Numbered from the stretch's first letter, positions 5,168-36,181 are shown. The stretch is 38,539 bases of DNA from Candidatus Buchananbacteria bacterium (GCA_903863425.1 CAIPBY010000012.1:1-38539), one strand, 5' to 3'. The notes: a model not told the origin generated them from the sequence alone. Numbers and translations: made by a program.

Positions 5168-5203
5168 ACTTTATAACTTTTAACTTTTTAACTTTATAAC
5201 TAA
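5168..5203 (+). repeat. AACTTTAT-family repeat, 3' arm only, before ftsZ
   Basis: actttataacttttaactttttaactttataac-taa; final AAC is 8 nt before ftsZ ATG. Confidence 0.8.
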
Positions 5204-5208
5204 ACCAT

Positions 5209-6450
5209 ATGCCAGAAATAAAACCGGACATAGAGACTATTGCCAAAATAAAAGTCATCGGCGTAGGTGGTGCCGGAGGCTCAGCTATCAATCGCATGAT
5301 TGCTTCCAAGATAAAGGGAGTAGAATTTATTGCGATTAATACCGATATTCAGGCCTTGCATCAGAATGAGGCCAAGAAAAAATTACATATCGGCCAGAAG
5401 ACGACCCGAGGCTTGGGCGCTGGCATGAATCCGGAAGCCGGTTTGCAAGCCGCGCAGGAAAACATCAATGACATTAGGGAACTGCTTAAGGGCGCAGATA
5501 TGGTTTTTGTCACTTGCGGACTTGGCGGGGGCACTGGCACCGGAGCGTCTCCTGTGGTGGCTCAAATTGCCAAGGAGATGGGAGCGCTTACTGTGGCCGT
5601 TGTCACCAAGCCATTTTCATTTGAAGGCTCTCAGAGAGCCGCTGTGGCCGATAGAGGATTCAATGAATTGAAAGACAGAGTGGATACTATCATTACCATA
5701 CCCAACGATCGAGTGCTTCAGAATATAGACAAAAAAACTCCGCTTTTGGAAGCGTTTAAGGCTGTTGATGATATTTTGCGCCAAGGAGTCCAAGGCATTT
5801 CGGAATTAATTACTATGCCAGGATTAGTTAATGTGGATTTCGCTGATGTTAGAGCTATTATGCAAGATACGGGCTCGGCTTTGATGGGCATAGGAGAGGC
5901 CAGCGGGGAAAACAGAGGCATAACGGCGGCCAAGATGGCCATCTCCTCTCCGCTTTTGGACATTTCCATTGATGGCGCCAGAGGCATCTTATTTATAATC
6001 GTGGGCGGTCCCAGCTTGGCCATGAGCGAAGTGCATGAAGCGGCCAATATCATCTCGGCCAACGCCGATGAAAATGCCAAAATCATCTTCGGTTCAGTAA
6101 TCGATGAGAGTATGAAGGATAAGATTAGGATAACAGTCGTGGCCACCGGATTCGGCGAGACGGACAATATCAAGAAGCCTTCCAAGGCCAATGCCTACAC
6201 TCCTAACCCGGCATTTATCCACAAGAGCATCAATAATAATTTTAATTTGGAGTCAGAAGATTCTAGAAATAATGAATACGGCCCTATTTCCAACATTAAG
6301 ATTGAGAGAAACGAAGAGGAAGATGAACAAAGAGAGACTTATAGCCGGCCTCCGGTGCCCTCCCCATCCCCGATGCGAGCCCAAATGAAGATAATCCCTG
6401 AAGAGGATGACTTGGAAATTCCCGCATTTATTAGGAAAAAAATGAAATAA
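5209..6450 (+). CDS. ftsZ: Cell division protein FtsZ
   Basis: GGGTGTG tubulin signature, NVDFADV, C-terminal [10 protein letters not shown]. Confidence 0.99.
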
Positions 6451-6480
6451 TTGACAGCCTGCTAGCACAAAAGTTATAAT
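6451..6480 (+). promoter_or_regulatory. Putative sigma70 promoter upstream of nrdD
   Basis: TTGACA, 18 nt, TATAAT immediately after the ftsZ stop. Confidence 0.6.
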
Positions 6481-6497
6481 GGAATGGAGCAGGCTAA

Positions 6498-6553
6498 GGA
6501 TCTAGCGGAAGCTTGAATGTTAAAATTTTAATTTTCAACCCTAGGTCTTTTTT
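6498..6553 (+). terminator. Terminator-like hairpin in the nrdD leader
   Basis: GGATCTAG/CTAGGTCT and TTGAA/TTCAA stems followed by a T run. Confidence 0.45.
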
Positions 6554-6669
6554 GTTCCCTTTTTTCAGATTTTTGAGCGTTAAAAATAAGTTGCTTAATT
6601 GCCAGAGTTATCGGAAAATTATTCTGCCTTCGGCATTGACAAACAAAGATAAAAATTATTTTGACCATA

Positions 6670-9600
6670 ATGGAACCGAATCAAATCAATCAAATTAAGA
6701 AGCGAAATGGAGATATTGCGGATTTTGATCAGAGCAAGATAACTCTAGCAGTGTATAAGGCCATGAAGGCTGTGGGACGCGATGATGAGAAACTGGCGGA
6801 GGAGCTTTCCGAGAAGGTAATCCGGATGATCAATACTAAATTCCATCCCCGGTCTATACCGGCCATTGAAGAAGTTCAAGATGCGGTCGAAGAAGTGCTG
6901 ATCAAGGAGAATTTCGTCAAAGCGGCCAAGGCTTATATTATTTATCGCGAACAGCATTCTCGGCTGAGAGATATGAAGAAATTGCTCGATTCCAATGATA
7001 TTATCGAGGGCTATCTCAAGCAATTAGACTGGAGAGTCAAGGAAAATGCCAACATGGCTTATTCTCTTCAGGGGCTCAATAATCACGTAGCCTCGGCGGT
7101 TAGTTCTCATTATTGGCTCAATAAGATTTATCCGCCAGAAATTAGGCAGGCGCATGTTGATGGCGTAATTCATTTACATGATTTACAACTTTTGGCTGTG
7201 TATTGCTGTGGTTGGGATTTGCAAGCTTTGCTTCGATTAGGTTTTGGCGGCGTGCCAGGCAAAGTCAGCAGTAAGCCGGCCAAGCATTTGAGGGTGGCTC
7301 TGGGTCAGGCCGTGAATTTCTTCTATACTCTTCAGGGCGAGGCGGCCGGAGCGCAGGCTTTTGCTAATTTTGATACTCTGATGGCGCCGTTTATCCGATA
7401 TGACAAGATGGATGAGAAAGAAGTGAAGCAAGCCATGCAGGAATTTATTTTCGGTATGAGCGTGCCGACAAGAGTAGGATTTCAATGCTTGTCTCAAGAT
7501 ACAGAAATTTTAACCAAAGACGGATGGTGTGATTATAAAGGAATAAAAGAAAAGGACATTATTGCTACTTTTAATATTGAGCAAGGGATTATAGAATATT
7601 TGCCGGTTAAGCGTGTTTTTGCCAAAAAGTATAAAGGTAAAATGTATAATTTAACCAATCGCATCAGCGATCAGCTGATTTCTCCTGGTCATCGAGTGGT
7701 GCGTCGCCAGTTCAATGGAGGCGGTTATGTTTTGGAGCCCATAGAAAAGGTGTTAAAATTAAAATCCCCGTTTATTGTGCCTGTTGGCTCTGGCGGTAAT
7801 ATTTATGGCAAAAGTGATTTAAGCGATGCTTGGGTAAAAATGTTGGCCTGGGTGGTGGCTGAAGGCACCTTGGATAAAGGGGAGAGAGGCGCTGGACGCA
7901 TAAGTATTTATCAATCAAAAGATAAGAATGCGGATGATTATGAAGAAATAGTCGCCCTGTGTCAAGAACTGGGTCTTAAATATGCCGAAAGGATACAGAG
8001 TGGTTTGGGTGCCCAGTGTCAGGTTTTAAGATTTGACTCCATCGGAACCCAAAAAATTCTTAAATTTTTTGGTGGTAATAAATCTAAGGGCATTAAATTT
8101 ATTCCTCAAGAAATTTTAACTGCTGATGTGGAGACTGCTAGATTATTTTTGGAGACATATATTAAGGGTGATGGTCATGAAGAATGTAAAATTACAACAG
8201 TACATGAAAAAATCAAAGATGGACTAATGATGCTTTCGGCTAATGCCGGTTATGGTGCGACTGTTTATGTCCGCAAGCCGGAAGGCATATCTCGAAAAGA
8301 TAGATATATTATTCGGCTTATCAAGCATGTCGACACTTATATTAATGAAGTCAAAGAAGTTGATTATGATGGTGTTATTTGGTGTCCCAATACCGATAAT
8401 GAGACGGTTATTGCCAGGAGAAATGGCAAAATTTTTATTACCGGCAATACTCCATTTACTAACTTGACCTTTGATTTAATTTGTCCTTCGACTTTGGCCA
8501 GTGAAAGAGTTATAATAGGTGGCATACCCCAGAGCGAGACTTATGGTGAGTTCCAGAAGGAGATGGATATCATCAACAAGACCTTTGCCGAAGTGATGAT
8601 GGAAGGCGATGCCCATGGGCGCGTGTTTACCTTTCCTATTCCGACTTATAATATTACTCCTGAATTTGATTGGGATAATAAAGTCTTGGATTCCATTTGG
8701 GAGATGACGGCTAAGTATGGCATTCCTTATTTTGCCAACTTCGTCAATAGCGACATGAAGGCCGAGGACGCCAGGAGCATGTGCTGTCGTCTGCGTTTGG
8801 ATAATCGCGAGCTCCGCAAGCGTGGAGGCGGGATGTTTGCGGCTAATCCTCTGACCGGTTCTATCGGAGTAGTTACCATCAATTTGCCACGAATTGGATA
8901 TTTATCCAAAAATAACAAAGAAGCTTATTTGAATCGGCTCGGTCAAGCCATGGATTTAGCCAGGCAGAGCTTGACGCTTAAGCGGGAGATTCTGGAGAAT
9001 TTTACGGTCATGGGGCTTTATCCATACAGTAAATTTTATTTATCAGATATTAGGGAACGTTTCGGTGAGTATTGGAAGAATCATTTCAATACTATTGGCA
9101 TTAATGGCATGAATGAGTCTTTGATTAATTTTATGGGCAAGTCCATCAGCGATCCCGAGGCCTATGAATTTGCAGTCAAGATAATGGATTTTATGTTGGC
9201 TCGTATGGCTAATTATCAGGAAGAAGATAATCAATTATATAATTTGGAAGCCACGCCGGCCGAGGGAGTGACATATCGTTTCGCCAAGAAAGACAAAGAG
9301 CTTTATCCGGATATAATTGTAGCCAATGAAGACGCTTACCGAGACAAGGGAGCTGCTCCGTACTACACTAACTCCACCCACTTGCCGGTTAACTTCTCTA
9401 GTGATATATTTGAAGTGTTGGAGAAGCAAGACGGCTTGCAGACTAAGTATACCGGAGGTACAGTGGTTCATGGATTTATCGGAGAGAAAATGCCGGACAT
9501 CGAAAGTACCAAGCAGTTGGTCAAAAAGATTGCAGAAAGTTTCCATTTGCCGTATTATACACTTACACCTACATTTTCTATTTGTCCCAAGCACGGGTAT

Positions 9601-9684
9601 CTCTCTGGTGAGCATAGGTTCTGTCCGATCTGTGATGAGGAAATCGGTTTTGTGAGAGAGCAAGAGGATAAATTGGCTCTATAA
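6670..9684 (+). CDS. nrdD: Class III (anaerobic) ribonucleotide reductase large subunit with ATP-cone and intein; lacks the C-terminal glycyl-radical loop
   Basis: ATP-cone (IKKRNG..FDQSKI), HLHDL, YCCGW, RSMCCRL finger loop, EATPAEG, C-terminal CPKH..CPIC Zn site; start set to ATG 6670. Confidence 0.93.
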   Translation: MEPNQINQIKKRNGDIADFDQSKITLAVYKAMKAVGRDDEKLAEELSEKVIRMINTKFHPRSIPAIEEVQDAVEEVLIKENFVKAAKAYIIYREQHSRLRDMKKLLDSNDIIEGYLKQLDWRVKENANMAYSLQGLNNHVASAVSSHYWLNKIYPPEIRQAHVDGVIHLHDLQLLAVYCCGWDLQALLRLGFGGVPGKVSSKPAKHLRVALGQAVNFFYTLQGEAAGAQAFANFDTLMAPFIRYDKMDEKEVKQAMQEFIFGMSVPTRVGFQCLSQDTEILTKDGWCDYKGIKEKDIIATFNIEQGIIEYLPVKRVFAKKYKGKMYNLTNRISDQLISPGHRVVRRQFNGGGYVLEPIEKVLKLKSPFIVPVGSGGNIYGKSDLSDAWVKMLAWVVAEGTLDKGERGAGRISIYQSKDKNADDYEEIVALCQELGLKYAERIQSGLGAQCQVLRFDSIGTQKILKFFGGNKSKGIKFIPQEILTADVETARLFLETYIKGDGHEECKITTVHEKIKDGLMMLSANAGYGATVYVRKPEGISRKDRYIIRLIKHVDTYINEVKEVDYDGVIWCPNTDNETVIARRNGKIFITGNTPFTNLTFDLICPSTLASERVIIGGIPQSETYGEFQKEMDIINKTFAEVMMEGDAHGRVFTFPIPTYNITPEFDWDNKVLDSIWEMTAKYGIPYFANFVNSDMKAEDARSMCCRLRLDNRELRKRGGGMFAANPLTGSIGVVTINLPRIGYLSKNNKEAYLNRLGQAMDLARQSLTLKREILENFTVMGLYPYSKFYLSDIRERFGEYWKNHFNTIGINGMNESLINFMGKSISDPEAYEFAVKIMDFMLARMANYQEEDNQLYNLEATPAEGVTYRFAKKDKELYPDIIVANEDAYRDKGAAPYYTNSTHLPVNFSSDIFEVLEKQDGLQTKYTGGTVVHGFIGEKMPDIESTKQLVKKIAESFHLPYYTLTPTFSICPKHGYLSGEHRFCPICDEEIGFVREQEDKLAL
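7486..8448 (+). mobile_element. Intein (321 aa) with LAGLIDADG-type homing endonuclease in NrdD
   Basis: Starts CLSQDTEILT, has SPGHRV (block B His), MLAWVVAEG and FLETYIKGDG helices, ends FITGN; removal restores GFQ|TPFTN. Confidence 0.92.
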
Positions 9685-9842
9685 GTTATAAAGTTAAAAG
9701 TTATAAAGTTCATAAAGTTTTAGATAAAAGATATTGACTTTATTTAACTTATAATAATTAAATTATTTACTGATAGGGCGTCATAATGAAATAGATTTCT
9801 TTGAATTTACTTTATAACTTTATAACTTTTAACTTTATAAAC
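9685..9842 (+). repeat. AAGTTAT/ATAACTT-family fold-back element between nrdD and the glycyl-radical ORF
   Basis: Left arm gttataaagttaaaagttataaagttcataaagttt; right arm actttataactttataacttttaactttataaac. Confidence 0.85.
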
Positions 9843-9855
9843 TAAATATAACCAT

Positions 9856-10011
9856 ATGGAAGGTGAAAACAGACAGCAAAGGCAGGCGTGCGAAGTTTAT
9901 TCCCGCATCGTCGGCTACATTAGGCCCGTGGATCAATGGAATCCAGGCAAGCAATCAGAATTCGGGGACAGAACAACTTTCCAAGTCGGGGATTGCGGAT
10001 GCGGTAATTAA
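9856..10011 (+). CDS. Stand-alone NrdD glycyl-radical domain peptide (51 aa)
   Basis: MEGENRQQRQACEVYSRIVGYIRPVDQWNPGKQSEFGDR...DCGCGN; YSRIVGY..P...WN.GK..E...R matches the class III RNR Gly-radical signature; below the ORF-track cutoff. Confidence 0.9.
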   Translation: MEGENRQQRQACEVYSRIVGYIRPVDQWNPGKQSEFGDRTTFQVGDCGCGN

Positions 10012-10017
10012 TAAAGT

Positions 10018-10713
10018 ATGAAGATCGGGGGATTGCAACCAGTTACTATTTTGGATTATCCGCAAAAAGTGGCAGCGATTTTATTCACCGCAGGGTGCAA
10101 TATGCGCTGTCCTTTTTGTCATAATCCGGATTTGGTAATTCCGGAAAATATAGAGAAGTCCCATCTTTTGGATGAGAGTGAGCTTCTGACGTATTTGCAA
10201 AAAAGAAAGAAATATCTTGACGGCTTAGTTATAACCGGAGGAGAGCCAACTATGCAACCGGATATTATTGATTTTTGCCGGAAGGTGCATGAGATGGGTT
10301 ATGCCATTAAGCTGGATACTAACGGCCTGATGCCCGAAGTGCTAGAGAAATTATTGGAAGAAAAATTATTGGATTATCTGGCCATGGATCTTAAAGGCCC
10401 TGTGGATAAGTATGAGAAATTTTGCGGTATCAAGGCGGATTGTGATAAAATAAATAAAAGCATTAAGATCGTTAAGGACAGCGGTTTGCCATATGAGTTT
10501 CGCAGTACCCTGGTCAAGGGCTTGCATGACAAAGGTGATGTAGCGGAGATGGCTAAGGCAATCAAGGGAGCGAAATTGTATTATTTGCAGAATTTTAATT
10601 TTCAAGATAGGCTAGTTGATAGCGGTTTTTCGGGAAAGAGTTTTTTAGTCAAGGAGATTGAAAATTTGGCTAAGATAGTCCAAGAATTCATTAAAAATTG
10701 TAAAATAAGATAA
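10018..10713 (+). CDS. nrdG: Class III RNR activating enzyme (radical SAM)
   Basis: GCNMRCPFCHN CxxxCxxC, TGGEP, LDTNG; follows the nrdD locus. Confidence 0.93.
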   Translation: MKIGGLQPVTILDYPQKVAAILFTAGCNMRCPFCHNPDLVIPENIEKSHLLDESELLTYLQKRKKYLDGLVITGGEPTMQPDIIDFCRKVHEMGYAIKLDTNGLMPEVLEKLLEEKLLDYLAMDLKGPVDKYEKFCGIKADCDKINKSIKIVKDSGLPYEFRSTLVKGLHDKGDVAEMAKAIKGAKLYYLQNFNFQDRLVDSGFSGKSFLVKEIENLAKIVQEFIKNCKIR

Positions 10714-10717
10714 AATT

Positions 10718-11041
10718 ATGGAAATCAAGCCTCAAAATAGCCCTGCGGAGCCTCTAGAAAAAGGGGAGAGCCGAAATATGGCAAGCGCTCAAAAAGAGGA
10801 AAAAAGCGAATTAATCAGATTGGCCAAGGAGAATTTGGATTATACAAAATTAATTTATGAAGATACACAGAAAATCAGAAGGTTTATGTTTTGGCGTTTG
10901 ATTATAAATATATTCTGGATTATTTTAGTCATAGCTCCGATTATTGTGTCTTTAATCTGGTTGCCATCATTACTCAAGAATTATTCCCAAATGTTTACGG
11001 GCGGACAAAGCATGGATGAAATTTTTAAAATGTTAAAATAA
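10718..11041 (+). CDS. Hypothetical single-pass membrane protein
   Basis: 107-aa ORF filling the gap between nrdG and prfB, one hydrophobic helix. Confidence 0.7.
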   Translation: MEIKPQNSPAEPLEKGESRNMASAQKEEKSELIRLAKENLDYTKLIYEDTQKIRRFMFWRLIINIFWIILVIAPIIVSLIWLPSLLKNYSQMFTGGQSMDEIFKMLK

Positions 11042-11042
11042 A

Positions 11043-12138: not shown

Positions 12139-12146
12139 TAAATTAA

Positions 12147-13796: not shown

Positions 13797-13797
13797 T
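13787..13797 (+). promoter_or_regulatory. Extended -10 promoter
   Basis: TGTG-G-TATAAT, 27 nt before ATG 13825. Confidence 0.5.
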
Positions 13798-13824
13798 AAT
13801 AATTAAGAATTTAAATTAAAAAAT

Positions 13825-14892: not shown

Positions 14893-14901
14893 AAATTTTT
14901 A

Positions 14902-15020: not shown

Positions 15021-15032
15021 CATAATTAATCC

Positions 15033-16398: not shown

Positions 16399-17472
16399 AT
16401 GGAAACCAACATTGACTATTTTTTGATGAAGACAAAGGTGGAAGGATTGGATAAGAAATTTGATCTTTCCGATATTGATTCTCGAAAGGAGTATTTCGAG
16501 GCCAAAGCCGGTGACGAGATCAAGAAGTTAAAGGAATTTTTTGAAACCAACACCTTTATTGCCTATTTGCTCGGCAAGAAGAATTCCGGCAAAGGAACTT
16601 ACACTAAGTTGCTTGCGGAAATTTTTGGCAAGGACAAAATCGGCCACATCTCGGTGGGAGATATTGTCCGAGCTATTCACGCCGATATGGAAGACCCGAT
16701 CAAAAAGCAGGAGTTGCTTGATTATTTGAAAGCCAATTATCGAGGCTATATGTCGTTTGATGATGCGGTTAATGCGCTTCTTGGGCGTGATACCAAAACC
16801 TTGCTTCCCTCGGAATTCATTCTGGCTTTGCTTCAGAAAGAAATTGATAAAAGGCCGAAATCATCACTATTTATCGATGGTTTTCCTCGAGATTTGGATC
16901 AGATTTCTTATTCCCTTTTTTTCCGCAATTTGATTAATTACAGACAGGATCCAGATGTGTTTGTAGCCATTAACATCCCTGAAGCGGTTATTGATGAGAG
17001 AATGAAGAACAGGGTAGTCTGTCCGATTTGCAAAACTCCAAGAAGTTTGAAATTGTTAGCGACCAAGGAAGTGGGATTTGACCAGGAGAAAAAGGAATAT
17101 TATTTGAAATGCGATAATCCAGAATGTAATGGCGTCAAAATGGTAGGCAAAGAAGGTGATAGCATGGGCATTGAATCCATCAGAGATAGATTAGAATTAG
17201 ATCAGAAATTAATTGATAAGATCATGGAACTCCATGGCGTGCCCAAGATTTTGCTTCGCAATGCGCTTCCAGTGGCTATGGCTCATGATTTGATTGATGA
17301 TTATGAAATCACCCCAGAGTATAGCTATGAATTAGCCGAGGATGGTAAAGTGCTCACGCACGAAAAACCATGGGCTACCAAGGATGATGAAGGTAATGAG
17401 GCTTATAGTTTGATGGCACCGGCGGTGGTTGTTTCTTGGTTGAAGCAGTTGGTGAAGGCGTTTGAATTATAA
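16399..17472 (+). CDS. Divergent adenylate-kinase-family nucleoside monophosphate kinase
   Basis: P-loop GKKNSGKGT, HISVGDIVR, IDGFPR, Cys lid CPIC..CDNPEC. Confidence 0.8.
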   Translation: METNIDYFLMKTKVEGLDKKFDLSDIDSRKEYFEAKAGDEIKKLKEFFETNTFIAYLLGKKNSGKGTYTKLLAEIFGKDKIGHISVGDIVRAIHADMEDPIKKQELLDYLKANYRGYMSFDDAVNALLGRDTKTLLPSEFILALLQKEIDKRPKSSLFIDGFPRDLDQISYSLFFRNLINYRQDPDVFVAINIPEAVIDERMKNRVVCPICKTPRSLKLLATKEVGFDQEKKEYYLKCDNPECNGVKMVGKEGDSMGIESIRDRLELDQKLIDKIMELHGVPKILLRNALPVAMAHDLIDDYEITPEYSYELAEDGKVLTHEKPWATKDDEGNEAYSLMAPAVVVSWLKQLVKAFEL

Positions 17473-17493
17473 AATATTTTTCTTTATCTCAAA

Positions 17494-17653
17494 CCCACCT
17501 TTTTAAAAAGGTGGGGCCAAAACGCAAGCGTACAAAATCATGGCCAAATTTTCCCTGCGCTCACTAAGCCACATGCGCCTCTGCTGAGGCTATATGCTGG
17601 CTATACACGCTCGCGCTTAGGGAAAATTGGCAACAATATTTTGTAATGCTTGC
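17494..17653 (+). repeat. Large structured GC-rich element A (22-bp palindrome plus long hairpin)
   Basis: CCCACCTTTTT|AAAAAGGTGGG; GCAAGCG-TACAAAAT/ATTTTGTA-TGCTTGC; GCCAAATTTTCCCT/AGGGAAAATTGGC. Confidence 0.7.
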
Positions 17654-17697
17654 AAGGGTGCGGGTACAAATACAAATTTAAATTTAATAAAAAAAAT

Positions 17698-18365: not shown

Positions 18366-18403
18366 TATTTTTTAATCCAAATTACATAATAACTTAGCGG
18401 ATT

Positions 18404-18571
18404 GGGGTTTGGGGGGAGCACCTTTCGCCAAAGCGCGAGTTGTAAGCCGAACCTCAGCCAGCAGGATGAGGTGAGCGAAACGAAGCGCGAATTAGCAAGG
18501 TATAAATCCCACCGAGCATAAGGCGAAATTGCGTACCCCAAAACCTTTGGTTCTTTCAGTTATGAAAGAAC
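18404..18571 (-). repeat. Large structured GC-rich element B
   Basis: GTTCTTTCA-gtta-TGAAAGAAC hairpin (18550-18571); GGTTTGGGG/CCCCAAAACC and TTTCGCC/GGCGAAA stems. Confidence 0.65.
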
Positions 18572-18606
18572 ATGAGAAATAGCTGAGAAATAATATAAAA
18601 GATAAT

Positions 18607-18649
18607 AAAAAACAAAAAACACCTTATTAGTAGGTGTTTTTTGTTTTTT
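18607..18649 (-). terminator. rpmB terminator (bidirectional)
   Basis: AAAAAACAAAAAACACCT-tattagt-AGGTGTTTTTTGTTTTTT. Confidence 0.8.
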
Positions 18650-18838: not shown

Positions 18839-18918
18839 GTTAAAAGTTTATAAAGTTATCAAGTTATAAAGTAAGTCCAAAGAAACTTTATGAACTTTCA
18901 ACTTTATAACTTTATAAC
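18839..18918 (-). repeat. AAGTTAT/ATAACTT-family element forming the rpmB 5' UTR
   Basis: Full fold-back; on the minus strand it ends AAC-TAAATATC-ATG. Confidence 0.85.
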
Positions 18919-19791: not shown

Positions 19792-20220
19792 ATGCCAACC
19801 ATTAATCAATTGCTCAAAAAACCAAGAGTAATCAAAAAAGCCAAGTCCAAAACACCTGATTTACAGATAACTTTGGATTCTTTGCATCGTAAGAAAAGAA
19901 CCATGCCCAAGGGTTGTTCCTTTAAGCGTGGCGTGTGCGTCCAAGTTAGAACTACTACTCCGAAGAAACCAAACTCCGCTCTACGAAAAATTGCTAGAGT
20001 TAGGCTTAGCAACGGCCAAGAAGTTACTGCTTATATCCCGGGAATTGGCCATAATTTGCAAGAGCACTCAATCGTTATGGTTCGTGGTGGCAGGGTAAAA
20101 GATTTGCCTGGTGTCAGATATCATATTGTTCGCGGTGTTTACGATAGTGCTGGCGTGGCCAACAGGAAGAAGGGTCGCAGTTTGTACGGTATGAAGAAAG
20201 AGAAGAAAGCCACGAAATAG
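19792..20220 (+). CDS. rpsL: 30S ribosomal protein S12
   Basis: [26 protein letters not shown]. Confidence 0.99.
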
Positions 20221-20327
20221 TTGAAAGTTCATAAAGTTTATAAAGTTATAAAGTAGGACTCTATAAACTAGAATGAACTTTAAAATAGTATTTAACTTTA
20301 TAACTTGATAACTTTTAACTTTATAAC
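20220..20327 (+). repeat. AAGTTAT/ATAACTT-family element (rpsL-rpsG)
   Basis: Starts in the rpsL TAG, ends AAC 8 nt before rpsG ATG. Confidence 0.85.
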
Positions 20328-20335
20328 TTAAATTT

Positions 20336-21477: not shown

Positions 21478-21546
21478 AAATTATTTAAAAATTCCAAAAT
21501 TGAAAATTGTTTGAAAATTATAAATTAAAAATTGAAAATTATAAAA
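21478..21546 (+). repeat. AATTGAAA-family repeat, 3' arm only, before fusA
   Basis: ATTGAAAATTGTTTGA at 21499-21514 is identical to 37571-37586. Confidence 0.7.
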
Positions 21547-26659: not shown

Positions 26660-26692
26660 GATCTGGTTTTTGAGATATGACCAGATTTTTTT
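26660..26692 (+). terminator. Terminator-like hairpin just upstream of rplC
   Basis: GATCTGGTT/GACCAGATT stem followed by a T run. Confidence 0.55.
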
Positions 26693-26710
26693 GTTTATAA
26701 ACCATTCAAT

Positions 26711-27535: not shown

Positions 27536-27562
27536 ATTATCAGTTATTAGTTATATATTAAT

Positions 27563-28246: not shown

Positions 28247-28250
28247 AGAT

Positions 28251-28724: not shown

Positions 28725-28731
28725 TTAATAT

Positions 28732-29577: not shown

Positions 29578-29602
29578 ATAAAAAGAGACTAAATTATAAT
29601 AT

Positions 29603-29890
29603 ATGCCAAGAAGTTTAAAGAAAGGCCCATACGTAGATCAAAGATTGATGGCCAAATTAGCTAAGTTGAAAATCGGCGAAAAAACCGTTATTAAGACTTG
29701 GGCTAGAAATTCCACAATTACTCCAGAAATGGTAGGGTTTACTTTTGGTGTGCATAATGGCAAAGAGCATATAGCAGTGTTGGTCTCAGAAAACATGGTT
29801 GGACACAAGCTAGGCGAATTTTCTCCAACCAAGAAGTTTATTAGACATGGAGGAAAGATTCAAAAGGCGATAGAGCAATCTAAGAAGTAA
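29603..29890 (+). CDS. rpsS: 30S ribosomal protein S19
   Basis: RSLKKGP, GHKLGEF. Confidence 0.99.
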
Positions 29891-29897
29891 TAAATTT

Positions 29898-30437
29898 ATG
29901 GAAACCAAAGCTAAAGCAAAATTTCTCAAGATTTCACCCAGAAAAGTCAGACTCGTTGCAGATCTGATCAGGGGTTTGAATGTGGAAGAAGCCATGGTTC
30001 AATTGCAATTCACTAGAAAAGCATCTTGCGATCCATTGAAGAAGCTTCTTAAATCCGCTATAGCCAATGCTGAAGAAAATGATGATTTGAAAAGAAGTAA
30101 TTTATTTATTTCCGAAATCAGGGTTGATGAGGCTCCTACCACCTATCGTTGGATGCCAAGAGCTATGGGTAGAGCTACTCCAATTAGAAAGAGGGCATCT
30201 CATGTCAGTTTGATTCTTGATGAAAGGATTCCTACAACGGAGAAGAAGGCCAAAGAGAAAAAAGATAGTAAAGATGATATAGTTAAGATAGAAGATTTTG
30301 ATCAATTGAAAGCCGTAGAGAAGGAAAAGAGTAAAGATGAGAAGATTACTGACGGCAAAGGAAAAGGCGGATCAACTGCCAAACCGCAAAAAGGTTTTGC
30401 TAATAAACTATTTAATAGAAGATCAGGCGAAAGATAA
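29898..30437 (+). CDS. rplV: 50S ribosomal protein L22 (C-terminal extension)
   Basis: SPRKVRLVADLIRG, PRAMGRA. Confidence 0.98.
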   Translation: METKAKAKFLKISPRKVRLVADLIRGLNVEEAMVQLQFTRKASCDPLKKLLKSAIANAEENDDLKRSNLFISEIRVDEAPTTYRWMPRAMGRATPIRKRASHVSLILDERIPTTEKKAKEKKDSKDDIVKIEDFDQLKAVEKEKSKDEKITDGKGKGGSTAKPQKGFANKLFNRRSGER

Positions 30438-30442
30438 AATAT

Positions 30443-31162
30443 ATGGGACAAAAAGTTCATCCAAAAAGTTTCAGACTGAAAATAAATAAGACTTGGGATT
30501 CCAAGTGGTATGCCGACAAAAAGGATTTTGCAGATCTTCTTCGGCAGGATGTTTTGGTTCGAAAATTTATTATGAAGAAGTTGAAGAATGCCATGGTAGC
30601 CAGAGTGGATATCGAGCGCACATCCAATGCTTTAAACATAAATATTTTTTCAGCTAAGCCGGGTGTTATTATCGGACGTGGAGGATCTGGAGCTGAAGAT
30701 TTGAAGAAAGAAATCCACAATTCATATCTTAAGGATGCTTTCAGCAGGAAAAGAGGACTCAAGAGTATTAACGTCAATATTTTGGAAGTTGAAAGGCCAG
30801 GATTAGAAGCCTCTTTGATTGGCCAAGTTATCGCCGCTGATTTAGAAAGACGTATTCCATTTAGAAGATCAATCAAGCAAGCCATTGGCAGAGTAGAAAA
30901 AGCCGGAGCTAAGGGTGTTAAGGTTATCGTTTCAGGAAGACTTGATGGAGCTGAAATTGCTAGACGCGAAACTTTATTTTCTGGCAAGATTCCTCTTCAT
31001 ACTTTGCGAGCAGACATTGATTATTCCAGAATTGCAGCTCAGACTATTTACGGAAAAGTAGGAGTAAAGGTTTGGGTGTACAAGGGAGAAGTTTTCGGAG
31101 AGCAGAAAGATAAGGAAGAAGGCAAAAATAAAGAAAATAGAGAAAGAAAATCAAATAATTAA
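30443..31162 (+). CDS. rpsC: 30S ribosomal protein S3
   Basis: [27 protein letters not shown]. Confidence 0.99.
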
Positions 31163-31167
31163 ATATT

Positions 31168-31575
31168 ATGTTGGCACCAAAGAAGTTAAAAAGAAGAAAA
31201 CAACATCGTCCAGATGTTCGAGGCGTGGCTACCGCTTGCAACACCGTTGCTTTTGGTAAATTCGCCTTGAAAGCAATTACTGGAGGTTGGATTGATGCCA
31301 AGCAAATCGAAGCATCGAGGCGGGTAATGACTAGATTCGTGAAGCGTGGCGGAAAGATTTGGATCAGAATATTCCCACATAGACCTATTACCAATAAGGG
31401 TAGTCAATCCACTATGGGTGGAGGAAAAGGTGTGCCGGAATATTATGTAGCTATTGTGAAGCCAGGAACAGTCATATTTGAAATGGACGGAGTGACAGAG
31501 GCTCAAGCCACCGAAGCCATGACTTTGGCTGGACATAAATTACCAGTAAAAACTAGAGTTGTAATCAAAGATTAA
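31168..31575 (+). CDS. rplP: 50S ribosomal protein L16
   Basis: [14 protein letters not shown]. Confidence 0.98.
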
Positions 31576-31579
31576 TTAT

Positions 31580-31765
31580 ATGGAAATTAAAGAATTAAGA
31601 TTAAAACCGATTGGAGAGTTGGATTCTATATTGCATGACTTACGCAAGAAAAGAGAGGATTTAGAATTCAAATCCAAGCAGAATCAATTGAAAAAGGTTC
31701 GAGATCTTCGGGTTGTAAAGAAAGATATTGCTCAAGTTTTAACTGTTTTAAAAGAAAAAAAATAA
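31580..31765 (+). CDS. rpmC: 50S ribosomal protein L29
   Basis: KKDIAQVLT; position in operon. Confidence 0.93.
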   Translation: MEIKELRLKPIGELDSILHDLRKKREDLEFKSKQNQLKKVRDLRVVKKDIAQVLTVLKEKK

Positions 31766-31769
31766 AAAT

Positions 31770-32018
31770 ATGAGTGAAGAAAAAAAAGTAACTAGCAGGA
31801 AGTTTAAGGGTGAGGTTGTTTCTAATAAAATGACTAAGACTATTGTGGTTAAAGTTGAGTCCTTTAAATTGCATCCTAAATATAAGAAGAGATACAAGGT
31901 AAGTAGCAAATATAAGGTTCATGACGAATTAGGAATATGCAAAGTCGGGGATAAAATTGAATTTATGGAATGCCGACCAATGAGCAAAGATAAGCGATGG
32001 ACAGTAATAAATAAATAG
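31770..32018 (+). CDS. rpsQ: 30S ribosomal protein S17
   Basis: KMTKTIVV, HPKYKK, RPMSKDKRW. Confidence 0.98.
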   Translation: MSEEKKVTSRKFKGEVVSNKMTKTIVVKVESFKLHPKYKKRYKVSSKYKVHDELGICKVGDKIEFMECRPMSKDKRWTVINK

Positions 32019-32119
32019 TTCATAAAGTTATAAAGTTCATAAAGTTAAAAGAAATGCAAAAACATCAAAACAATTATTAATTGACTTTATAAACTTTACT
32101 AACTTTATAAACTTTCAAC
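32018..32119 (+). repeat. AAGTTAT/ATAACTT-family element (rpsQ-rplN)
   Basis: TA-GTT...AAC-TA; ends 8 nt before ATG. Confidence 0.85.
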
Positions 32120-32127
32120 TAAAATAT

Positions 32128-32499
32128 ATGGTACAAATGCAATCAATATTAAAGTCTGCCGATAATACTGGAGCCAAAAAGCTCTATGTGATTAAGGCGC
32201 TTGGAGGATATCAAAGAAGATACGCTAGACTTGGCGATATTGTAACTGCTTCAGTCAAGGAAGCTACACCTCATAGCATGGTCAAAAAAGGCGATGTGGT
32301 TCAGGCAGTACTCGTTCGTACTAGAAAAGAAGTGAGACGCCCAGATGGTTCATATATCAGGTTCGATGATAATGCGGCAGTAATTATTGATATGAAGAAT
32401 AAAGAAATGAAAGGAACTAGAATTTTTGGACCAGTGGCTAGAGAGCTTAGAAATTTAGGATTCCAAAAGATTATTTCTTTGGCTCCAGAAGTATTGTAA
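32128..32499 (+). CDS. rplN: 50S ribosomal protein L14
   Basis: [19 protein letters not shown]. Confidence 0.99.
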
Positions 32500-32526
32500 A
32501 TATATAAATTATTAAATATCAAAGAT

Positions 32527-32838
32527 ATGAAGATAAAAGTCGGTGATAAAATAAAGATTTTGTCAGGCAAAGACAAAGGCAAATCCGGAAAGGTATTGCA
32601 GGTTTTTGTAGCTGAAGAAAGAGTAGTGGTTGAAGGTTTGAATTTAATGATCAAGAATCAAAAAGGCAAAAAACAAGGAGAAAAAGGACAGAGAATTCAA
32701 TTTCCTTGCCCAATTAATATTTCCAATTTAGCTCTTATCTGCCCAAGATGCGGAGCGGCTGCTAGAGTCGGATACAAAATGCTTGAAGACGGCTCCAAGA
32801 AGAGCAGAATGTGCAAGAAATGCCAAGAAGCAATATAA
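32527..32838 (+). CDS. rplX: 50S ribosomal protein L24
   Basis: GKDKGKSGKV KOW motif; CPRC..CKKC. Confidence 0.97.
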   Translation: MKIKVGDKIKILSGKDKGKSGKVLQVFVAEERVVVEGLNLMIKNQKGKKQGEKGQRIQFPCPINISNLALICPRCGAAARVGYKMLEDGSKKSRMCKKCQEAI

Positions 32839-32848
32839 GACAAAAAAT

Positions 32849-33394
32849 ATGAAATCAATATTATATAAAAAATATCAAGAAGAAGTGAAGCCGGCTTTGA
32901 AGGAAAAATTTGGCATTAAAAACCAAATGGCTATTCCTAAAATTATCAAGGTTAGTATTAATAGTGGCATAAATGCTAGAAATACTGATAGTCATTTTGT
33001 GGAATTGGTAGATAATACTTTAACTAGAATTACCGGACAGAAGCCAATTAAGACCAAAGCCAAGAAAGCTATTTCTGCTTTCAAAGTTAGAGAGAATATG
33101 GTAGTGGGAGTTACGGTCACTTTGCGAGGCCAGAAAATGTATGATTTTCTTGATAAATTAATTAATATTTCTATTCCTAGAATTAGGGATTTTAGAGGAT
33201 TATCAGAGAAGAATGTTGATAAACAGGGCAATTTAAATTTGGGCTTCAAGGAACATAATGTTTTTCCGGAAATAAGAAGCGACGAAGTCGAAAGAATTCA
33301 TGGACTCCAGATTTCTATTTCTACTACGGCCGAGAAATATGACCGAGGATTAGAGTTGTTTAAACTCCTAGGATTCCCTTTTCAAAAGAAATAA
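32849..33394 (+). CDS. rplE: 50S ribosomal protein L5
   Basis: ITGQKP, PRIRDFRG; start reassigned to ATG 32849. Confidence 0.98.
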   Translation: MKSILYKKYQEEVKPALKEKFGIKNQMAIPKIIKVSINSGINARNTDSHFVELVDNTLTRITGQKPIKTKAKKAISAFKVRENMVVGVTVTLRGQKMYDFLDKLINISIPRIRDFRGLSEKNVDKQGNLNLGFKEHNVFPEIRSDEVERIHGLQISISTTAEKYDRGLELFKLLGFPFQKK

Positions 33395-33406
33395 GATTTA
33401 TAATAT

Positions 33407-33592
33407 ATGGCAACAGAAGCACAGATCGCAAAATCCAAAAAGACACCTAAGTTTTCTTCTCGTAAAGTGAATAGATGTTGGAAATGCGGTAGAAGACATG
33501 GTTATCTTAGAGATTTCAAGTTGTGTAGAATTTGTTTCAGGGAGTTAGCCAATAACGGCCAAATTCCTGGAGTTACAAAATCTTCATGGTAA
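33407..33592 (+). CDS. rpsN: 30S ribosomal protein S14 type Z
   Basis: [24 protein letters not shown]. Confidence 0.97.
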
Positions 33593-33617
33593 TTAATATT
33601 TAATTATTTATTTTAAT

Positions 33618-34016
33618 ATGACAGATCCAATTGCAGACATGCTTACTCGAATCAGAAATGCTTCCAGAGTCAAGAAGGCGGAGGTTTTTATTCCATTTTC
33701 CAAAATAAAATTGGCTATTATTAAAATTATGAAATCTCATGGTCTTATTGAAGGATATAGCGAGATTAAGCCAGGAGAAGACAATAAATTCGGCGGTATA
33801 ATGATAAATCTTAAATATGAAGATGGCAAACCAGCCATATCCAGCCTGAAGAGAATTTCTAAGCCAGGAAGAAGGGTTTATGTAGCCAAAGATGAAATGC
33901 CTAATGTTTTGAATAATTTCGGATTGGCCATAGTTTCCACTTCACAAGGATTATTCACCAACAAAGAGGCCAAAAAGATGGGTCTTGGCGGAGAAGTGAT
34001 TTGCGAAATATACTAA
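33618..34016 (+). CDS. rpsH: 30S ribosomal protein S8
   Basis: DPIADMLTRIRNA, SKPGRRVY. Confidence 0.99.
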   Translation: MTDPIADMLTRIRNASRVKKAEVFIPFSKIKLAIIKIMKSHGLIEGYSEIKPGEDNKFGGIMINLKYEDGKPAISSLKRISKPGRRVYVAKDEMPNVLNNFGLAIVSTSQGLFTNKEAKKMGLGGEVICEIY

Positions 34017-34020
34017 TTAA

Positions 34021-34109
34021 GTTAAAAGTTATAAAGTTTATCAAGTTCATAAAGATAATGCAAATACTAATTAAAAATTTAACTTTCTAACTTTATAAAC
34101 TTTACGAAC
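34021..34109 (+). repeat. AAGTTAT/ATAACTT-family element (rpsH-rplF)
   Basis: TAA-GTT...AAC-TAA; ends 8 nt before ATG. Confidence 0.85.
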
Positions 34110-34117
34110 TAAACTAT

Positions 34118-34663
34118 ATGAGCAGAATAGGAAAACAATTAATAAGCATTCCCAGCGAAGTTGATTTCAAGATTGACGATGGCTTTGTAGTTATCAAAGG
34201 ACCAAAAGGAGAACTCAAGCAATTTATCCATCCCCAGGTGATAGTTGAATCCAAAGATGGAGTTATTACTGTCAAAGTGCAGGATGAAAATGACAAAAGT
34301 CAAAGAGCTCTTTGGGGTTTGTACGGTAGTTTGGTTAAGAATATGGTAACTGGAGTAACTGTTGGTTTCGTAGAAAAATTAGAAATCAATGGAGTCGGCA
34401 TGAAAGCCGCAGTAGCTGGTAATAAGTTGATTTTAAATGTTGGTTTTTCTCATCCAGTAGAATATAATATACCTGTTGGGATGCAAATAACCGTAGAAGG
34501 CAATATCATTTCCATTGGTGGTATAGACAAACAGGTTGTCGGTGAAATTGCTGCTCAAATCAGAAAGATTAAGAAAGTTGAGCCATACAAAGGCAAAGGC
34601 ATTAAGTATGTCGGCGAGCAAGTTCGTCGCAAGGCTGGTAAAGCTGCCGCAAAAGCTAAATAG
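34118..34663 (+). CDS. rplF: 50S ribosomal protein L6
   Basis: MSRIGK, EPYKGKGI. Confidence 0.99.
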   Translation: MSRIGKQLISIPSEVDFKIDDGFVVIKGPKGELKQFIHPQVIVESKDGVITVKVQDENDKSQRALWGLYGSLVKNMVTGVTVGFVEKLEINGVGMKAAVAGNKLILNVGFSHPVEYNIPVGMQITVEGNIISIGGIDKQVVGEIAAQIRKIKKVEPYKGKGIKYVGEQVRRKAGKAAAKAK

Positions 34664-34672
34664 TAAAAATAT

Positions 34673-35026
34673 ATGAATAAAGTAAGATCAAAAATACAAA
34701 CAAAAGTTAGAAGGCAGGCCAGAACCAGAGCCAAAATTTCTGGCACGGCAACTCGTCCTAGGATTTCTGTTGCCCGCAGTTTGAGCCATATTTATGTTCA
34801 GATGATTGATGATGCTAGTGGAAAGACTATTTTATCTGTCAAAGACGGTGAAGTGTCTGCTGGTAAGAATAAGGTTGAAACAGCTTCTGCCGTGGGCAAG
34901 CTTTTGGGAGAAAAGGCAATGGAGAAGAAAATTACAGAAGCCGTTTTTGATAAGGGCATGAATAAGTATCATGGCCGGGTTAAGGCAGTCGCTGATGGCG
35001 CCAGAGAAGCAGGATTAAAAATATAA
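34673..35026 (+). CDS. rplR: 50S ribosomal protein L18
   Basis: RPRISV, YHGRVKAVADGAREAGL. Confidence 0.98.
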   Translation: MNKVRSKIQTKVRRQARTRAKISGTATRPRISVARSLSHIYVQMIDDASGKTILSVKDGEVSAGKNKVETASAVGKLLGEKAMEKKITEAVFDKGMNKYHGRVKAVADGAREAGLKI

Positions 35027-35030
35027 AAAT

Positions 35031-35555
35031 ATGAATACAAAAGACAGCAGAAGAAAAAATCCTAGACTAAAAAAGGAAGAACCTGAATACCAACAGCAAA
35101 TTGTTGATATTGCTAGAGTTACTCGTGTTATGGCTGGTGGCAAAAGAATGAGCTTTCGAGCTTGCGTAGTTATCGGCGACAAAAAGGGAAAAGTGGGAAT
35201 GGGACTAGCCAAAGCCAAAGATGTTCCCATGGCCGTGCAAAAAGGCGTAAGACAAGCTGAGAAAAATCTTATCAAAGTAAATACTGTAAATGGTACTATA
35301 CCTCATGAAGTTTATGTCAAACTTGGCGCAGCCAAAGTGCTTTTGAAACCAGCTCCTCTTGGTACTGGTATTATTTCTGGAGGCGCAGCGAGATTGGTTC
35401 TTGAATTGGCTGGAATTGAAAATATTGTTTCCAAGATTTTGGGTACCAATAATAAAGTCAATAATGTTAGAGCGACTCTTAGGGCTTTGGAGATGCTTAA
35501 GAAGAAAAAAAAGAAGAATGAGAATATAGAAGATAAAGAGAAGGAAATAAAATAA
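35031..35555 (+). CDS. rpsE: 30S ribosomal protein S5
   Basis: RVTRVMAGGKR, PAPLGTGII. Confidence 0.98.
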   Translation: MNTKDSRRKNPRLKKEEPEYQQQIVDIARVTRVMAGGKRMSFRACVVIGDKKGKVGMGLAKAKDVPMAVQKGVRQAEKNLIKVNTVNGTIPHEVYVKLGAAKVLLKPAPLGTGIISGGAARLVLELAGIENIVSKILGTNNKVNNVRATLRALEMLKKKKKKNENIEDKEKEIK

Positions 35556-35651
35556 GTTCATAAAGTTATAAAGTTCATAAAGTTATAAAGTAAATACAAA
35601 AAATAATTAAGAATTAAACTTTATAACTTTCAACTTTATAAACTTAATAAC
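35556..35651 (+). repeat. AAGTTAT/ATAACTT-family element (rpsE-rplO, at the usual rpmD position)
   Basis: TAA-GTT...AAC-TAA; ends 8 nt before ATG. Confidence 0.85.
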
Positions 35652-35659
35652 TAAATTAT

Positions 35660-36109
35660 ATGTCATTAAACTTATCAAATTTAAAGCCAGCCAAAGGCTC
35701 GACCAAAAAGAAAAAGAGAATTGGTCGTGGAGGCAAAAGAGGCGCTTACTCTGGCAAGGGTATGAAAGGCCAAAAGGCTAGAAGCGGTGTTTCCGGTTTG
35801 AAGGCCTTGGGTTTCAGACAAACACTACTGCGAACTCCAAAGAGCAGAGGATTTCGAAGTATCAAGCCAAAGATGCCAGTCGTTGATATTGTCAGATTAG
35901 AGAAGAAAGTAGAAGATGGCGCTACTATCGACCTGAAAAAAATGAAAAGACTCAGTCTGGTTGAATCCAATATTAAATCAGTCAAAGTTATTGGTAAAGG
36001 AGAATTAACCAAGAAGTTAACTGTTATCGCCGACGGATATTCTGCAGGAGCCAAAGAATCAATTGAAAAAGCTGGCGGAAAGGCAGAGATTAAAGTAAAA
36101 AGTTCATAA
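35660..36109 (+). CDS. rplO: 50S ribosomal protein L15
   Basis: RIGRG, GKGMKGQKARSG, IEKAGG. Confidence 0.98.
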   Translation: MSLNLSNLKPAKGSTKKKKRIGRGGKRGAYSGKGMKGQKARSGVSGLKALGFRQTLLRTPKSRGFRSIKPKMPVVDIVRLEKKVEDGATIDLKKMKRLSLVESNIKSVKVIGKGELTKKLTVIADGYSAGAKESIEKAGGKAEIKVKSS

Positions 36110-36181
36110 AGTTTATAAAGTTCATAAAGTTGGGGAAGAAATCCATAACTTTATAACTTTCAACTTTATAACTTTATAAAC
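36102..36181 (+). repeat. AAGTTAT/ATAACTT-family element (rplO-secY); left arm supplies the rplO stop
   Basis: GTTCATAAAGTTTATAAAG...ACTTTATAAAC; ends 10 nt before ATG. Confidence 0.85.

Follow-up and report, generated by a model that had tools for sequence, protein, structure and literature searches.

The stretch of DNA considered here (38,539 nucleotides of Candidatus Buchananbacteria bacterium, GCA_903863425.1 CAIPBY010000012.1:1-38539; hereafter, the window) contains a cluster of ribosomal-protein genes, together with ftsZ, a split nrdD, rpmB, fusA, secY and adk. Immediately before eight of these genes lie copies of an A/T-rich element made of short tandem units, in which a left array faces its mirror image, the right array, across a loop (Table 1). 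The window is contig C12, and makes up 3.4% of a Patescibacteria assembly (G000; 1.12 Mb, 39.6% G+C, 101 contigs, 98.8% complete). For comparison, there was a set of 41 related genomes, including a congener, G001, whose SecY, rplN and ftsZ are 90%, 98% and 92% identical to those of G000. At another site in G000, the same two arms enclose a gene for a protein of the family PF05635 (23S_rRNA_IVP), which invites comparison of the elements with the intervening sequences (IVSs) of 23S ribosomal RNA (rRNA).

Table 1. Array elements of the window and the gene-bearing cassette on contig C63, with the state of the orthologous site in the congener G001 (dG in kcal/mol; nt, nucleotides; ORF, open reading frame; window positions are counted from its first nucleotide)
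Element	Position	Strand	Structure	Upstream stop or feature	Downstream start	dG	z	Site in G001
ftsZ	5168..5203	+	start-proximal (3') arm only, 4 AACTT units, terminus ..TATAACTAA	5155-5157, then T8 run	ftsZ ATG 5209, 8 nt past AAC			ftsA-ftsZ: empty, spacer ~21 nt
nrdD tail	9683..9842	+	5-unit left arm, 96-nt loop, 3-unit right arm	begins at stop of NrdD body ORF (6670-9684)	tail ORF (51 aa, glycyl-radical) ATG 9856, 13 nt past AAC	-40.2	-5.4	nrdD body-tail: empty, spacer ~44 nt
rpmB	18839..18918	-	full; terminus AACTAAATATC		rpmB (L28) ATG 18830	-23.6	-5.0	rpmB region: GAAAATT-family element
rpsL-rpsG	20220..20329	+	full	rpsL TAG 20218-20220 (element's first TAG)	rpsG ATG 20336	-25.4		empty, spacer 17 nt
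rpsQ-rplN	32018..32119	+	full	rpsQ TAG 32016-32018	rplN ATG 32128	-21.9	-7.9	empty, spacer ~21 nt
rpsH-rplF	34019..34109	+	full	rpsH 34014-34016	rplF ATG 34118	-15.3	-3.2	different small palindrome
rpsE-rplO	35554..35651	+	full	rpsE 35553-35555	rplO ATG 35660	-21.5		empty, spacer ~22 nt
rplO-secY	36100..36181	+	full, 4+4 units	rplO TAA 36107-36109, within first unit	secY ATG 36192	-26.9	-8.6	short remnant of AAGTT family, 1+3 units
GAAAATT family	21489-21540				fusA ATG 21551			
GAAAATT family	37491-37613			secY terminator 37467-37490	adk ATG 37624			
Cassette	C63:19905-20301		same arms around 114-aa ORF		next gene			empty: stop + 4 nt + ATG

All eight copies put forward by the original prediction are present, and so is the spacing it described: the terminal AAC precedes the ATG by 8 nt in six of the eight, by 10 nt before secY and by 13 nt before the nrdD tail. 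The left arm is composed of tandem AAAGTT(N1-3)AT units and the right arm of mirror AACTTT units, with loops of 15-96 nt among the window copies; arrays of this family (the AAGTT family) can be written (AACUUUAU)n for the start-proximal arm. The outer termini read TAGTT or TAAGTT on one side and AACTA(A) on the other. Units of 7-8 nt, four to five per arm, had been proposed; tandem, mirrored units are what is found, with a period of 7-9 nt and mostly three to five units per arm. In five of the six full co-directional copies (9683, 20220, 32018, 35554 and 36100), the stop codon of the gene before is touched or overlapped by the first GTT, which bears out the claim made for most copies; in the sixth (34019), this GTT lies 4 nt beyond the stop. 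The stop codons of rpsL and rpsQ are the element's own TAG. The leaders between the window copies and the ATG read TAAAnnnn and lack a purine-rich Shine-Dalgarno sequence. On the minus strand, a promoter-like TTGACT-17-TATGAT (18951-18923) stops 5 nt upstream of the rpmB copy, so that the copy would, as had been suggested, form essentially the whole 5' untranslated region (UTR) of rpmB, the promoter being a predicted one. In the window, there were no Rfam matches at the gathering threshold and no tRNAs found with ARAGORN.

The family extends well beyond the window. Taking an array as at least three AAGTT or AACTT cores at a spacing of 6-10 nt, there are 39 arrays of at least three units in G000, whereas 20 shuffled genomes have 0.25 on average and never more than 2; likewise, the three-unit pattern gives 33+33 matches, compared with 4+7 for a backwards control. 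These arrays make up 22 copies: 18 pairs of left and right arms, one copy with a degenerate left arm (C101) and three single arms (ftsZ, C38 and C66), each of which is the arm adjoining the start codon. The unit period is 7 nt in 18 instances, 8 nt in 35 and 9 nt in 41, and arms have three to five units (mean 3.7), apart from one arm with two and one with six. In the right arm of the copy before ligA (C99:19459-19508), six cores lie 9 nt apart (7.3 copies at 100% identity according to TRF), and such perfect repeats suggest a recent expansion by slippage. Among metagenome contigs, searched at 80% likeness, matches were noisy and included no clean example of a filled or an empty site; the left arm of one copy occurred joined to the right arm of another, with a different loop.

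The phasing recurs genome-wide. In 21 of the 22 copies, the terminal AACTA(A) lies 3-13 nt before the ATG of a gene (the copy on C91 is ambiguous), and the most frequent gap is 8 nt (9 of 21). At arrays, 20 of 28 AACTA occurrences have an ORF of at least 50 aa whose ATG comes 3-13 nt later; elsewhere, only 82 of 2014 (4.1%) do. The downstream genes, named from N-terminal sequences, tblastn labels and, for some, Pfam, are housekeeping genes: ftsZ, the NrdD tail, rpmB, rpsG, rplN, rplF, rplO, secY, yidC, efp, recA, dnaX, iscU, infC, rplT, ligA and gatA. The eight window copies are a large share of the 22 for a stretch of this size (binomial 4e-7, a figure to be read with the fact that the copies are not independent).

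Each of the 18 full copies that were folded forms a hairpin, with dG from -11.9 to -41.0 kcal/mol and z from -2.8 to -8.6. The base of the stem lies at the upstream stop codon, and the last ~8 nt together with the AUG are unpaired. The hairpins are stable; the proposal that the elements act as an RNA device, though conceivable, gained no support. Within the AAGTT family, no copy-specific compensatory pairing was found: arms pair with their own partners at a mean of -23.1 kcal/mol and with arms of other copies at -25.4 kcal/mol (permutation p 0.98, 17 copies). Mismatches between arms are 12 of the G:U type and 12 of the A:C type, beside 516 matches and 33 mismatches of the transversion type, i.e., there is no signature of selection for a helix in the sense RNA. 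Since both arms are built of one unit, the potential for pairing follows from their construction.

A search for a copy with an ORF in its loop was successful. On contig C63 (Table 1), the same arms surround an ORF that matches PF05635 with an E value of 3.5e-33 (and TIGR02436, four helix bundle protein) and not a transposase; it begins, with its ATG, directly at the left arm and ends, with a TAA, in the first unit of the right arm, after which ..TATAAACTAATCCC and the ATG of the next gene follow. To our knowledge, PF05635 is a very large family for which no function is known outside diversity-generating retroelements (DGRs). The AlphaFold model of the C63 protein (pLDDT 97.4) resembles Xcc0516 (2GSC; TM 0.91), BT_0352 (2RLD) and, more distantly, Avd. 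The Avd matches are 4DWL and entries for DGR ribonucleoproteins, according to whose titles Avd is a pentamer in a complex of RNA and protein; a Xanthomonas protein of PF05635 is described as a toroidal homopentamer in the available text of PMC4990558. The loops of the other copies are unrelated to one another and to the C63 ORF. The idea that they are decayed PF05635 genes was rejected, as there was no signal: one loop of 16 scored marginally above shuffles against the C63 ORF. The genome also has a gene for RNase III. The 23S rRNA gene of G000 (C87:11949-15719) has 3771 nt compared with the 2925 positions of the model, and holds a 161-aa ORF of the LAGLIDADG type; it was considered as a host of the same arrays, and there are none in it.

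The AAGTT family is not the only one in this genome. A second, commoner family has the form (AATTTTC)n..TCAAACAAT..loop..ATTGTTTGA..(GAAAATT)n and is represented twice in the window (Table 1). Its pattern, GAAAATTGAAAATT with at most one mismatch, has 48+50 matches in G000 (control 2+1) and 14+13 in G001 (control 1+2). This family, too, has a gene-bearing member: a PF05635 gene on C89 (~917-1238, minus strand) lies in the loop of a GAAAATT-family element. Of the PF05635 genes of G000 other than that of C63, those on C89 and C80 are in or beside arrays of the second family, and a weak match on C92 is without arrays.

The combination of a PF05635 gene with mirrored tandem arrays proved to be general. 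The family is matched in 32 of the 41 related genomes, with no match in G001 and up to 13 in G038. Flanks were scored by how well the 110 nt that precede the ATG complement the 110 nt that follow the stop codon, against 30 shuffles. With one locus taken per genome, 23 of the 30 best PF05635 loci scored higher than every shuffle, and several of the seven others show arrays by eye; of 20 further loci (from G023, G008, G037 and G038; the ORF call is unreliable in three), 18 did so. For a wider sample, an alignment of 39 PF05635 proteins was too diverse to search for loci, and an alignment of a subfamily of nine sequences (A3) was used instead; the resulting 80 loci from species-representative genomes, which represent this one PF05635 subfamily only, passed a stricter flank test in 51 cases. 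They span many lineages of the candidate phyla radiation (CPR), Bacteroidota, Fibrobacter, Nitrospinota, Ignavibacteriota, metagenome-assembled gammaproteobacterial genomes and others. More than 15 unit sequences occur (including CTAGTCC, AAGCTAAT, CGTAACG, GTGTAAA, AATTACC, GACTTTAT, AACTCCT, AAGCCAT and AGAAAAT), and whatever the unit, the two arms of a cassette are always mirror images. Mirrored arms with differing units constitute covariation at the level of the superfamily.

Within the A3 subfamily itself (nine proteins, 61-71% identical to the C63 protein), eight have arms of the A/GACTTT type and one, in G025, has GTGTAAA arms. Arms of the A/GACTTT type accompany the C63-type subfamily at different loci in G023, G008, G020, G022, G014, G036 and G038; thus, arms and gene travel together. 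Two PF05635 cassettes lie between tRNA genes (G023:C6:34325-35227 and G008:C16:110764-111666), each with arm units of its own; the left arm begins right at the 3' end of one tRNA and the right arm stops a few nt before the next. A cassette of opposite polarity, (AACTTTT)n, gene, (AAAAGTT)n, ATG, occurs at G037:C1:166749-167663, in a genome with many strict heptamer (AAAAGTT)n arrays. In the available text of PMC3936711, PF05635 genes are found wedged between cas genes. As regards reading frames, units with a period of 7 or 8 nt and one stop codon each would insulate translation. The left arms of the cross-phylum loci (30 of 80 could be scored) contain 117 stop codons where 61.7 (sd 5.2) are expected, and in 16 of the 30 there are stops in all three frames, compared with 3.3 expected. 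As a general rule, insulation by stops in all frames was nevertheless dropped: the left arms of the AAGTT family in G000 contain 69 stops versus 73.2, and stops in all frames occur in two of 17 versus 7.4 expected, a failure that goes together with their many 9-nt periods.

Comparison between relatives shows that the elements come and go. G001 has neither a match to the AAGTT pattern nor a PF05635 match, and six of nine orthologous sites are empty there, so that filled and empty sites, which the original prediction would have lacked if it were wrong, do exist; the other three hold a remnant, a member of the second family or a different palindrome (Table 1). At the site of the C63 cassette, a unit of 420 nt consisting of arms plus gene occupies what is a gap of 4 nt in G001. 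Before ftsZ, G001 has a single ATAACACTAA-like unit compared with four units in G000. In G023 and G008, the orthologous junctions between ribosomal-protein genes carry arrays of other unit families (AAGCTAAT and TTTTTATA), and the AAGTT-family copies of these genomes are at other junctions, e.g., before rpsH and not before rplF. Of the 12 genes behind AAGTT arms in G023, efp alone has an orthologue in the set of 20 downstream proteins of G000 that were scored. This small overlap, and the other junctions used in G023 and G008, indicate an insert that comes and goes rather than a conserved regulon. The reuse of ribosomal-protein junctions by different families suggests that these are preferred or permissive sites. 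G011 has AAGTT arrays and no PF05635 match.

The reading to which we incline, on balance, is that the elements are gene-less members of an IVS-like, PF05635-associated family of hairpin cassettes, which colonises the stop-start gaps of transcribed operons. What is observed comprises the gene-bearing copy with shared arms, the generality of the architecture, gain and loss relative to the congener, the absence of conserved targets, the phasing, a potential for folding and an RNase III gene in the genome; how the copies spread, the cutting of the stems by RNase III and any role of the PF05635 protein are what we infer. A full-length cassette would comprise a left array of 7-9-nt tandem units, the gene and a mirror-image right array, with the next gene starting a few bases further on. 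Both the cassettes and their derivatives without the gene would be acquired and lost over times in which species of one genus diverge, lodging in very short stop-to-start gaps of transcribed operons. Their outer ends, TAGTT...AACTA, would often provide the stop codon of the upstream gene and a short, unpaired, A/U-rich leader, mostly of 8 nt, before the AUG, and unit numbers would afterwards drift by slippage. As RNA, each copy would be an imperfect A-U hairpin of 25-35 bp across the whole intercistronic gap. By analogy with the intervening sequences of rRNA, whose stems are cut by RNase III and some of which carry a PF05635 ORF (as far as the available text of PMC4990558 goes), this stem is probably cleaved by RNase III. 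Such cleavage would make the insert tolerable in essential operons and may incidentally separate cistrons. In CPR bacteria, ORFs of PF05635 are described in rRNA insertions (10.1101/2024.02.27.582315, in its available part).

Several observations weigh against this reading. The unrelated loops mean that the gene-less copies are neither recognisable deletion derivatives of the cassette nor copies of one master. A mobilising enzyme was not found, in that searches of G000 for two transposase families, Y1_Tnp (PF01797) and DDE_3 (PF13358), gave no match, and we know of no catalytic activity in PF05635. Among viral contigs there were 70 pattern matches, none of them confirmed as a relative of the C63 subfamily, i.e., no vector was found. 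No clean target-site duplication was seen: TA stands on both sides in about half of the copies, and a duplication is inseparable there from the terminal inverted repeat TAGTT..AACTA. The mode of 8 nt and the nine-fold excess of copies in the ribosomal-protein window could reflect selection for a function in cis. Finally, G001 retains GAAAATT arrays while giving no PF05635 match, and G011 (above) likewise has arrays with no match to the family.

The main alternative, which we rank below the cassette reading and regard as unlikely, is that these are cis-regulatory leader arrays, in which the start-proximal (AACUUUAU)n binds a factor in trans (S1 of the ribosome, a cold-shock protein or the PF05635 pentamer) and thereby tunes initiation at genes without a Shine-Dalgarno sequence, while the left arm masks or unmasks the array. 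All the single-arm copies retain the start-proximal arm, and the end of that arm is held close to the ATG, most often at 8 nt; the unit is conserved while the loops are not, and the arms are not matched copy by copy, which fits recognition of a unit better than pairing. The downstream genes are housekeeping ones, with copies over-represented in the ribosomal-protein cluster, and Avd, the closest characterised structural relative, is, by the titles of its entries, a pentamer in a complex of RNA and protein. The nonamer TTAACTTTA, which we take to be the 'epsilon' enhancer of T7 gene 10, occurs 13 times in the arrays, but also 26 times outside them. It is present in a vector linker that is said, in the available text of PMC9462701, to hold an enhancer and a ribosome-binding site, and a leader argument of the same kind was made for the TAACTGA repeats of Beggiatoaceae (MacGregor 2015, PMC4679880, in the text available). 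The turnover data disfavour this explanation: the targets are not conserved (one of 12 is common to G000 and G023), the congener has plain short spacers at orthologous genes and lacks both the AAGTT family and PF05635, and unrelated unit families stand at orthologous junctions of other genera, with at least three families in one genome. Moreover, in a full copy the supposed binding arm would be tied up in a stable hairpin.

Growth in place, rather than arrival, is the essence of another explanation, in which palindromic microsatellites arise by slippage and strand-switching from an A/T-rich seed in the start context (..ATAACTAA..), nothing is transferred between loci, and PF05635 genes merely prefer such loops as landing sites. 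It draws on in-place changes in unit number (1+3 units in G001 against 4+4 in G000 between rplO and secY; the single unit against four before ftsZ; the six perfect 9-nt repeats on C99), on the unrelated loops and on the three single-arm copies among 22. It is nonetheless improbable, as it does not account for one unit being common to 22 loci and another to a second set, for the joint recurrence of this unit family and an orthologous PF05635 gene at different loci in several genera, and even in other taxonomic families of the class, or for a block of 420 nt with arms and gene in place of a gap of 4 nt. Still less probable is a classical MITE (a miniature transposable element with inverted repeats) mobilised by a conventional transposase (IS630/Tc1-like with TA duplication, or a hairpin-acting enzyme of the IS200/IS605 or RAYT type) that is encoded elsewhere or has been lost. 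The TA at both ends of TAGTT..AACTA in about half of the copies, the copy number, and presence or absence between relatives would fit it; but no enzyme of the two families searched is matched in a 98.8% complete assembly, internal sequences are unrelated, the arms are variable arrays and not fixed ends, and the sole ORF found inside is that of PF05635. The MITE-like element at stop/start junctions that had been proposed does hold up in outline, in that the copies are gene-less relatives of a longer cassette, present or absent within one genus and at different junctions across genera; they are not MITEs of the classical kind. Least probable of all is a role as transcription signals, either internal promoters (the unit contains -10-like TATAAC or TATAAA) or intercistronic terminators or attenuators. 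TATAA(A/C) is indeed found in units, on C66 a TTGACT-17-TATAAC runs into the arm, and the rplN copy is at what we take to be the boundary between the S10 and spc operons of E. coli. Between 18600 and 38539, however, promoter-like matches are not in excess (58, versus 55.1 with sd 7.4 in shuffled sequence), and elements, which have no G+C-rich stem and T tail, are absent from the 22 terminator-like sites; before rpmB, there is a separate promoter-like site outside the copy.

A bolder extension of the cassette reading, which is a long shot, may be set beside these. In it, the units of the arms would be a code read by the cassette's own pentameric protein (about one unit per subunit), and the gene-less copies before ribosomal-protein genes, infC, efp, secY, ftsZ and recA would form a regulon whose processing or translation is controlled in trans. 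Every family of arrays would be served by a PF05635 paralogue of its own, i.e., the AAGTT family to the C63 protein and the GAAAATT family to the C89 protein. A selfish cassette of the IVS type would then have been domesticated, in bacteria without Shine-Dalgarno sequences, as a global post-transcriptional regulator, with the base of the stem, 8 nt from the AUG, replacing the Shine-Dalgarno helix.

There are some further observations on the window. The gene nrdD is split: of the 562 positions of the NRDD profile, those as far as 531 are matched by the 1004-aa ORF (6670-9684), and 531-562, the glycyl-radical end, by the 51-aa ORF (9856-10011, ..RIVGY..), with the element of 9683-9842 in the gap. 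The same split is present in G001, with a plain spacer. Residues ~300-593 (~294 aa) of the NrdD body are without a counterpart in G001, where tblastn aligns only 1-299 and 594-1004, and Pfam shows no intein or endonuclease domain in this stretch at E <= 0.001. Two G+C-richer repeats are present: ~17470-17690 (~200 nt) recurs at 86-96% identity on 11 further contigs of G000, and has several copies in G001, and ~18375-18610 (~230 nt) has copies on C6 and C13; neither has an Rfam match at the gathering score. Between 35031 and 36109, rplO directly follows rpsE, with no rpmD (L30) between them, the search for L30 being confined to this interval. The absence of rpmD has been reported for CPR bacteria.

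Heptamer-type arrays near starts and stops have, so far, been unexplained curiosities of Beggiatoaceae, Xanthomonas, Nostoc and Bacteroidetes. The window brings such arrays together with PF05635: 22 hairpins that share the arms of a PF05635-bearing cassette sit in operons that are the most essential ones of a 1.1-Mb genome, and are missing from a sister species. If the link is true, many 'orphan' heptamer arrays would have a common origin, the arms would be a testable substrate for the PF05635 protein, and there would be IVS-like inserts that live in mRNAs instead of rRNA. For annotation, such arrays account for intercistronic gaps that are too large, for contig breaks and for changes of C-terminus or stop codon (here in rpsL, rpsQ and rplO), and an array marks one junction inside the split nrdD.

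Among known repeats, the short tandemly repeated repetitive (STRR) sequences of cyanobacteria resemble the elements in being tandem heptanucleotides in intergenic regions, and have no known function. The Correia/NEMIS MITEs, the repetitive extragenic palindromes (REPs) and the bacterial interspersed mosaic elements (BIMEs) are likewise small, multi-copy, intergenic palindromes that are co-transcribed with their neighbours, but the elements here have tandem arrays of variable make-up for arms, no conserved internal sequence, and PF05635 as their sole cargo. The REP/BIME system with its RAYT (a G+C-rich palindrome of 20-40 bp with a GTAG/CGTC tag, and a Y1 enzyme) is not matched by A/T-rich arrays in a genome without a Y1_Tnp match.

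It had been thought that there was no earlier description of elements with such phasing, which was mistaken, since two such systems are in print: the TAACTGA repeats (PMC4679880) and the paired inverted GGGAATC arrays (PMC4692102). As described in the available text of MacGregor (2015, PMC4679880), the former occur in marine Beggiatoaceae, some Cyanobacteria and Bacteroidetes as sets of two to six forward-oriented tandem units of ~7 nt that stop a few nt short of starts mostly lacking a Shine-Dalgarno sequence, and within ribosomal-protein operons; they are scattered patchily over the phylogeny, and indels between strains come in steps of whole units. The AAGTT elements have tandem units, forward orientation and a position a few nt before a start without a Shine-Dalgarno sequence in common with them. 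They differ in that the TAACTGA repeats are direct arrays, with one inverted set only, and another unit, and in that the same available text mentions neither an ORF-bearing form nor a link with PF05635. The GGGAATC/GGGGATT repeats of Xanthomonas and Nostoc, as far as the available text of Rehm et al. (2015, PMC4692102) describes them, are arrays of heptamers, most often of about four units, between co-directional ORFs, at most 50 bp from starts or stops and sometimes overlapping stop codons; Xanthomonas has 70-75 convergent pairs able to form stem-loops, and most of the arrays are transcribed. Those arrays are G-rich and are interpreted as formers of G-quadruplexes, which the A/T-rich units here cannot form, and that text does not link them with a four-helix-bundle gene, although 2GSC is from Xanthomonas campestris. 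In a literature search that covered neither subscription journals nor supplements, there was no paper linking PF05635 to flanking inverted arrays of tandem units, and no description of such hairpins in Patescibacteria.

Among the closest parallels are the IVSs of 23S rRNA, such as those in helix 45 of Coxiella burnetii and in Leptospira (PMC4990558, in its available text). In common with the elements here, these have complementary ends that form an extended stem-loop, an optional ORF of the PF05635/S23p type, short forms without the gene and a sporadic distribution that suggests horizontal spread, and RNase III, for which G000 has a gene, is present in the host. An IVS occupies a helix of rRNA (helix 9, 25 or 45 of 23S, or one in 16S), and RNase III removes it from the transcript with no religation. 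The elements described here differ in that their arms are tandem arrays of 7-9-nt units, and excision by RNase III would, for them, be an extension by analogy. Their place is in mRNA, in stop-start gaps or a 5' UTR, where all 22 adjoin protein-coding genes, and not in a helix of rRNA.

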